Origin: Escherichia coli
GTDB lineage: Bacteria; Pseudomonadota; Gammaproteobacteria; Enterobacterales; Enterobacteriaceae
DNA length: 11,574 nt
Assembly (NCBI RefSeq): GCF_003334315.1
Contig: NZ_QOWR01000085.1
Direction: 5' to 3' (one strand)
In this document: piece after piece, positions 10,707-11,574 of the stretch
Layout of the letters: each line of letters begins with the position of its first letter
How positions within the stretch are numbered: the stretch's first letter is position 1
Position numbers and translations under genes: made by a program
Notes under the pieces: generated by a model
Seen by the model: only the letters and a program-made list of their open reading frames with translations
Database searches by the model: none
What the model was told of the DNA's origin: nothing

Positions 10707-11126
10707 ATGGCTGATATATCAACACCCAACCTCGACTATAACGATATGCTGGAGGCGTGGGATATTAACGACGCACTGATGGGCGGTACGCTTGAAATGC
10801 GCAGGCAGGGGGAAAATTATCTCCCAAAATGGCCTAACGAAGATGAAGACGCTTATAAAAAACGCCTGTCTGTGGCTACGCTACTTCCTGTGTATGAAGA
10901 AAGCATCAAGCAAAATATTGGGCGCATATTTGCAGAGCCGACAGTATTGAGTGAGGAAACGCCGGCAAAAATCAGGGAATATGCAGAAAATATCGACATG
11001 GAGGGGAGCCGACTGGATGTGTGGGCGCAGCAATTTTTCAGCCTCGCATTTCAGTATGGTGTGGCACATGCGCTGGTGGACTACCCACGAACGGATATGA
11101 AAGAGATTCGTACAAAAGCCGGGTAA
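10707..11126 (+). pseudogene. Probable portal (or first head-morphogenesis) gene, 5' fragment truncated by IS1
   Basis: Starts 3 nt after the large terminase stop; the frame runs into the IS1 terminal repeat at 11122 and the TAA stop (11124-11126) is supplied by the IS1 end. Portal identity is positional. Confidence 0.45.
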
Positions 11127-11574
11127 TGACTCCAACTTATTGATAGTGTTTTATGTTCAGATAATGCCCGATGACTTTGTCATGCAGCTCCACCGATTTT
11201 GAGAACGACAGCGACTTCCGTCCCAGCCGTGCCAGGTGCTGCCTCAGATTCAGGTTATGCCGCTCAATTCGCTGCGTATATCGCTTGCTGATTACGTGCA
11301 GCTTTCCCTTCAGGCGGGATTCATACAGCGGCCAGCCATCCGTCATCCATATCACCACGTCAAAGGGTGACAGCAGGCTCATAAGACGCCCCAGCGTCGC
11401 CATAGTGCGTTCACCGAATACGTGCGCAACAACCGTCTTCCGGAGACTGTCATACGCGTAAAACAGCCAGCGCTGGCGCGATTTAGCCCCGACATAGCCC
11501 CACTGTTCGTCCATTTCCGCGCAGACGATGACGTCACTGCCCGGCTGTATGCGCGAGGTTACCGACTGCGGCCT
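11122..11574 (-). mobile_element. IS1 insertion sequence, partial (right inverted repeat at 11122, continues past window end)
   Basis: Begins with the IS1 terminal inverted repeat GGTAATGACTCCAACTTATTGATAGTG; contains insB on the minus strand. Confidence 0.95.
11137..11574 (-). CDS. insB: IS1 transposase InsB (partial, N-terminus beyond window)
   Basis: Minus-strand translation ...[68 protein letters not shown]...NIKHYQ matches IS1 InsB; stop at 11137-11139. Confidence 0.9.

Follow-up and report, generated by a model that had tools for sequence, protein, structure and literature searches.

An IS1 junction in the portal gene of a defective Rac-type prophage of Escherichia coli, probably the edge of a deletion

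The stretch of E. coli DNA analysed here (the window, 11,574 nt) comprises late-operon genes of a Rac-type lambdoid prophage, and it ends in an IS1 element joined to nucleotide 415 of the gene that follows the large terminase gene. Judged from its sequence, the 139-codon open reading frame (ORF) at this junction is a truncated pseudogene of a portal family member, and the prophage is defective, whether the junction arose by insertion or by deletion. Comparison with related genomes indicates that the junction is probably the edge of an IS1-mediated deletion and not a simple insertion. Both the insertion of IS1 and the adjacent deletions that it promotes belong to textbook knowledge, as does Rac as the classic decaying prophage; the junction is an ordinary instance of a known process and a common step in prophage decay. 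Its relevance extends little beyond annotation, in which the 139-codon ORF becomes a portal pseudogene and the prophage a defective Rac-type remnant, not an inducible phage.

The portal stub and its junction with IS1

The ORF opens with the ATG at 10707, 2 nt past the TAA of the large terminase gene (10702-10704), and ends at 11126. Its native part comprises 415 nt, the final native base being G11121. This base is placed at 11121 because the IS1-free relatives read cgtacaaaagccg/atgaaaacgcg at the junction; the intact gene thus has ...caaaagccg/atgaaaac where the window has ...caaaagccg/GGTAATGA. The end of IS1, GGTAATGACTCCAACTTATTGAT, starts at 11122 and is matched exactly over 11122-11144. 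Codon 139 (GGG, Gly) and the TAA stop are made with IS1 bases, the last residue being IS1-encoded. The first-pass annotation, in which the gene after the large terminase runs into the IS1 repeat at 11122 and takes its stop codon from the IS1 end, is correct on both points. The features of the region are collected in Table 1.

Table 1. Features of the junction region (window coordinates), IS1 junctions in the portal gene of complete genomes, and IRR-side endpoints of the pinR-anchored IS1. M10 coordinates refer to NZ_CP010200.1 4688000-4732000, which holds the full-length M10 prophage.
Feature	Position	Strand	Evidence or outcome
Small terminase subunit, 364 aa	8328..9422	+	PF03592 Terminase_2 in identical public gene; relatives' annotation
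Large terminase subunit, 433 aa in relatives, ORF from 9394, apparently intact	9403..10704	+	PF03237 + PF17289
Portal 5' stub, 138 native codons + 1 nt (nt 1-415 of 1407)	10707..11121	+	ES6 identity, PHROG 145
IS1 terminal inverted repeat (IRR end) at junction	11122..11144	.	same 23-nt end in annotated IS1A copies
TAA stop of truncated ORF	11124..11126	+	from IS1 nt 3-5
IS1 (IS1A-identical), first 453 of 768 nt from IRR end	11122..11574	-	0 differences vs IS1A
FACU 2024, IS1 junction	portal nt 126		simple insertion, 8-bp duplication (nt 119-126)
EA13, IS1 junction	portal nt 346; M10 12268 joined to 34703		deletion
I3, IS1 junction	portal nt 469; M10 12391 joined to 34705		deletion
EC6622, IS1 junction	portal nt 796; M10 12718 joined to tfaR		deletion
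SC516, IS1 junction	portal nt 1065; M10 12987 joined to foreign DNA		deletion
IRR endpoint in TAGT glycosyltransferase-like gene	M10 8996		CP138419, AP027813
IRR endpoint in head-tail gene	M10 about 17412		ES6
IRR endpoint in tape-measure (TMP) gene	M10 22357		FACU 2024, OZ249091
IRR endpoint outside Rac			AP021895

The 139-aa product recurs without change on 23 independent contigs of public origin (one ENA metagenome, NCBI drafts, and Logan runs; the runs include ERR4221129, ERR3393344, ERR13482077, SRR35362010, and SRR26499382), with an identical junction in all of them. Because the same junction is carried by 23 contigs from several sources, it is real and inherited within a lineage. The exact junction is absent from 5426 complete RefSeq E. 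coli genomes, from IMG/VR viral contigs, and from GTDB species-representative genomes, and the left junction was not found in JGI metagenome contigs.

In the relatives free of IS1, the gene at this position has 1407 nt and encodes a 468-aa protein annotated as DUF4055, which rules out the possibility, raised in the first-pass annotation, that the 139-aa ORF might be complete in them. The full-length relative matches the PHROG 145 'portal protein' profile with E=3.5e-165 over positions 7-481 of 493, it belongs to PF13264 (DUF4055), and solved portal proteins align with its residues 49-458. The window ORF matches PHROG 145 with E=6.5e-49 over positions 7-141 only, such that a full-length PHROG 145/PF13264 match is given by the intact relative and not by the window ORF. 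The stub is identical to the first 415 nt of the portal gene of E. coli ES6. In ES6 and E. coli M10, the large terminase (TerL) gene is followed by the portal gene and by the genes of the MuF-like minor head protein, the DUF6651 scaffold, and the P22-type major capsid protein. The place of a portal gene, directly after TerL and before the MuF-like gene, is thus seen in its upstream half in the window and in full in M10 and ES6.

It is extremely improbable that the junction is an assembly chimera or that the 139-aa ORF is a natural short gene, complete in itself. Nothing speaks for either except that the window ends within a repeat. A chimera is refuted by the 23 independent contigs, and a natural short gene by the profile coverage, as the 468-aa gene of the relatives fits the portal profile end to end while the stub covers only its beginning; moreover, the last residue and the stop of the ORF come from IS1.

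Residues 1-138 match the N-terminal portion of the PHROG 145/PF13264 portals, but about 70% of the protein is missing from the window product, and with it almost the entire region aligned with solved portals. Such a stub cannot form a portal or be a functional member of the family. Without the portal dodecamer no procapsid is assembled or packaged, and therefore no virions can be made. The earlier suggestions that the interrupted gene is a probable portal and that the prophage probably cannot make virions are both strengthened, the former by the two families and the solved-portal homology, the latter by the survival of only 138 of 468 residues.

The same portal gene has been inactivated independently in other lineages, by a change of E140 to a stop codon (GAA to TAA) and by stops that give N-terminal fragments of 132, 147, and 152 aa. 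Relatives also show a 1-nt insertion and, at about nt 444, an inserted IS903B. All of these lesions were found through a shared 318-aa downstream ORF, and their clustering before codon 151 is therefore an ascertainment effect.

A Rac-type late operon

The genes of the window are, in order, a Q-like gene, two TolA-like ORFs, holin, lysozyme, Rz, trkG, a ParB-like gene, a TAGT gene, the small terminase (TerS), TerL, and the portal gene. Positions 121-11121 are about 99.9-99.95% identical to the M10 prophage, with no indels, and the sole structural difference is an IS3 carried by M10. The M10 prophage carries trkG and ynaK/ParB-like and continues through the tail genes, stf/tfaR, pinR, and ydfK up to uspF-ompN. 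The traits of a Rac-type prophage (trkG, ynaK/ParB-like, late genes, pinR, and ydfK at uspF-ompN) are thus recognized by way of the identity to M10, the chromosomal flank lying outside the window. The full-length relative has the lysis, TerS, and TerL genes in co-linear arrangement, and over 9.6 kb the two sequences differ by 5 mismatches and no indels, in agreement with the first-pass description of the lysis and terminase genes as looking intact; because there are no indels relative to M10, their frames are as in the relatives. Relative to ES6 as well, the large terminase gene has no indels.

The window belongs to the same family as the Rac prophage of K-12 and has the same neighbourhood (trkG, ynaK/ParB-like, pinR, and ydfK/ynaE near uspF-ompN), and in both, deletions and IS elements have left a defective remnant. 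K-12 Rac has lost its terminase, portal, and head genes altogether, whereas the window retains TerS, TerL, and the 138-codon portal stub; it also differs in its lesion, an IS1 junction that none of the 5426 complete RefSeq E. coli genomes contains.

Several further features of the operon can be mentioned here. The lysis cassette consists of holin (3515-3730), lysozyme (3730-4227), and Rz (4224-4688). Upstream of the holin gene lie two TolA-family ORFs (PF06519; 2289-2717 and 2868-3263, plus strand, 142 and 131 aa), whose homologs carry the RefSeq names 'cell envelope integrity protein TolA' and TolA C-terminal-domain protein. Between these ORFs and the Q-like gene, at 1992-2178 (plus strand), there is a full-length match to Rfam RF02076 (STnc100 sRNA) with 86.6 bits against a gathering score of 47 (E=6.7e-18). 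The Trk potassium transporter gene trkG (4808-6283, plus strand) is a cargo gene between the lysis cassette and the packaging genes. Just upstream of the small terminase gene, a ParB/Srx N-terminal-domain protein (263 aa, PF02195; 6421-7212, plus strand), annotated as a ynaK fragment in several relatives, overlaps the gene of a 310-aa protein (7205-8137, plus strand) that matches PF20691 (TAGT) and bears the RefSeq name 'GREB1-related protein'. This pair is possibly a DNA-modification module of Rac-type phages.

The 'Escherichia phage vB_EcoS-...' records, which are 99.8% identical, were rejected as proof that intact relatives form virions, since they stem from the computational location of prophages in clinical isolates (bioRxiv 10.1101/2022.06.29.498070).

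IS1 in the window and in pinR of related genomes

Over its last 453 nt (11122-11574), the window shows 100% identity to IS1A as annotated in five complete E. coli genomes, among them ES6, EA13, FACU 2024, and HN68, and because of this identity the assignment to IS1 is not due to chance. IS1 is characterized by its terminal inverted repeats, by InsA and InsB (InsAB' by frameshift), and by a length of 768 bp; the window holds one terminal repeat and the C-terminal part of the insB frame (minus-strand ORF, 11137..11514), with the insA half and the IRL beyond its end. The IS1 sequence was rejected as a marker of the origin of the copy, since the 453 nt do not distinguish between any of the IS1A copies compared.

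While the window reaches 453 nt into IS1, all 23 public junction contigs end 2-121 nt into it. A draft contig of the ES6 type (GCA_036914215.1) ends about 452 nt into its own IS1. At its right end the window was probably not cut arbitrarily; the contig itself is likely to have ended there, at a branch point between copies of IS1.

ES6 carries an IS1A in the same orientation 5.1 kb downstream, where it is flanked by a head-tail gene and by pinR, both truncated. The 121-aa truncated PinR of this junction, in which pinR is read into the IS1 IRL, has exact matches in 187 blocks of the public collection. In the seven genome sequences fetched, the IRL flank is constant at M10 34346 (tgcatcatcattttt), and the IRR flank varies, as listed in Table 1. 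A fixed IRL flank together with a varying IRR flank is the signature of repeated one-sided IS1 deletions, that is, of a nested series.

Among the matches listed from the 5426 complete genomes, only ES6 is 100.0% identical to the window over 9300-11121. At position 11084, a C is found only in the window, in ten contigs of its lineage, and in four ES6-type junction sequences, the other 23 sequences having a T. Because only they share this SNP, the lineage of the window and the ES6 type appear to be close relatives, an argument based on one or two sites. No lineage-specific amino-acid variant by which the head genes could be traced in the same samples was found.

IS1-promoted adjacent, or one-sided, deletions are said to have been first described at the gal operon, by Reif and Saedler in 1975. 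The relatives resemble these classical cases, in that their pinR-anchored IS1 has one IRL flank and four endpoints on the IRR side, i.e., one constant and one variable IS junction, and the window IS1 is oriented as the pinR-anchored copy, as expected of another member of the nested series. The difference is that the window itself shows the variable (IRR) junction alone; we infer the constant junction, and likewise that the IS1 of the window is that copy. Tentatively, one may picture the pinR-anchored IS1 as having produced graded one-sided deletions across natural E. coli, with endpoints in the tape-measure gene, the head-tail gene, the portal gene (the window), and the TAGT gene, and beyond Rac. 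If true, such a series would show which late genes are kept (trkG, the lysis cassette, ParB-TAGT, and the terminases) and which are lost, and it could test whether promoter-proximal retention is selected or follows from the direction of the IS1 deletions.

In GCA_004172665.1 and similar contigs, a second, inverted IS1 lies 11 nt upstream of the ParB-like gene (window 6409/6410). The 4.7-kb segment from ParB to the portal stub is, in this sublineage, enclosed between two inward-facing IRR ends. Duplicative inversion by the portal-side IS1 would give this arrangement, and so would an independent insertion.

Deletion or insertion

The proposed deletion would start from a resident downstream IS1 in the same orientation, anchored at codon 116 of pinR. 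In an intramolecular transposition of this copy, the IRL junction next to pinR would be kept and the IRR end joined to a new upstream target, portal nt 415, with loss of the DNA in between. The pinR-anchored junction is our hypothesis for the far side of the deletion and the most likely one, as the kinship with ES6-type genomes makes it the most economical. About 22.0 kb (M10 12338-34345) would then be gone, comprising the rest of the portal gene and every head and tail gene; starting from an ES6-type intermediate, in which 16.9 kb are already absent, a further 5.1 kb would have been lost. Other far-side endpoints do exist, as in EA13 and I3, where they lie upstream of pinR.

In complete genomes, this portal gene is joined to IS1 in five cases, and four of them are deletions, with no target duplication and with the downstream head and tail genes lost (Table 1). 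These five cases share with the window the gene, the IS family, and the resulting portal pseudogene, but they are independent events at other nucleotides, and the IS1 copies of I3 and EC6622 are divergent variants (95% and 93% identity), whereas that of the window is identical to IS1A. Most IS1 portal junctions in complete genomes are accordingly deletion scars, the loss of head and tail genes reaching about 22 kb, and an IS at a contig end is not to be read as a simple insertion. The uniform orientation of IS1 across the region was rejected as evidence, since the query held IS1 in this orientation and opposite cases could not have been joined or ranked.

The first-pass annotation had taken the junction for a simple insertion, with the remainder of the gene and a 9-bp duplication to be looked for beyond IS1. 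Such a transposition into an intact portal gene would have duplicated 8-9 bp (CAAAAGCCG), leaving nt 416-1407 and the head and tail genes downstream. The expected right junction is GGCAGCATCACC (IS1 IRL), followed by (C)AAAAGCCG (the 8-9 bp duplication) and ATGAAAACGCGACC (portal nt 416 onward), or GGCAGCATCACC-CAAAAGCCG-ATGAAAACG in split-read form. The remainder products were predicted for both duplication lengths (8 and 9 bp) and for the extents of IS1 present in the left-junction contigs, the forms tried being the 9-bp duplication with 8, 9, 24, or 29 IS1-derived codons and the 8-bp duplication with a TTG start. By exact-product look-up, which misses an unexpected allele, another start codon, an unusual duplication length, or a short far-side contig, none of these five products has a record in the public collection, as against 23 contigs for the left junction. 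As a positive control, the collection does record the 413-aa remainder of the simple insertion in FACU 2024. A scan of the JGI metagenomes for IS1 IRL, an 8-12 bp duplication, and portal nt 416 found no such junction and is uninformative, the left junction being absent there too.

After a simple insertion, contigs in which at least 91 nt of IS1 were assembled should encode a 318-aa product that starts at Met151. Among the 24 longest contigs with this product, none has IS1 upstream of the ORF. As the far-side product the recorded 318-aa remainder was therefore rejected, all 24 contigs carrying other lesions, namely, nonsense changes (stops giving N-terminal fragments of 132, 139, 147, or 152 aa), a frameshift (1-nt insertion), or IS903B at nt 444. 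A simple insertion in an ES6 background predicts about 23 IS1-bounded contigs of 5.2 kb with the 94-aa ES6 junction product. This product is on 15 contigs, and a window-type sample or the IS1-bounded 5.2-kb form is in none of the eight places shown.

In light of these results and of the deletions that predominate at the portal gene in complete genomes, the simple insertion put forward earlier is unlikely. The first-pass annotation had itself named an IS1-mediated deletion as the opposing case, which alters the mechanism and leaves the prophage just as defective. It does draw support from nearby cases, as IS1 has inserted in this way in the portal gene of FACU 2024 and, with a 9-bp duplication, in TerL of HN68; in addition, the window and the 23 contigs all end within IS1, and nine further blocks of short contigs with the 318-aa product lie outside the 24 contigs read. 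Less probable still is another IS1 rearrangement, either an inversion or recombination between copies or a deletion to an endpoint other than pinR. The different far sides of EA13, I3, EC6622, and SC516 are in its favor, as are the joining of the pinR-anchored IS1 to DNA outside Rac in AP021895 and the sublineage with the second, inverted IS1 4.7 kb upstream, whose inward IRR ends are as after duplicative inversion. An inversion that followed a simple insertion would, on the other hand, leave a junction of IS1 IRL, duplication, and portal remainder, of which none was found, and the ES6-type kinship again favors the pinR anchor. Taken together, a deletion scar and the other rearrangements that would also remove the remainder of the gene account for the junction with good likelihood, and of these we prefer the IS1-mediated deletion.

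The endpoints of EA13 and I3 deserve a separate remark. Their IRL ends (7521/7522 and 7644/7645 of the respective segments analysed) are separated by 2 bp and precede the pinR start codon by 14-16 nt (M10 34703-34705). The EA13 element is IS1A, that of I3 is about 95% identical to IS1A, and the two are joined to different points of the portal gene opposite the IRL. This suggests a local hot spot for IS1 targeting or the repeated use of one site.
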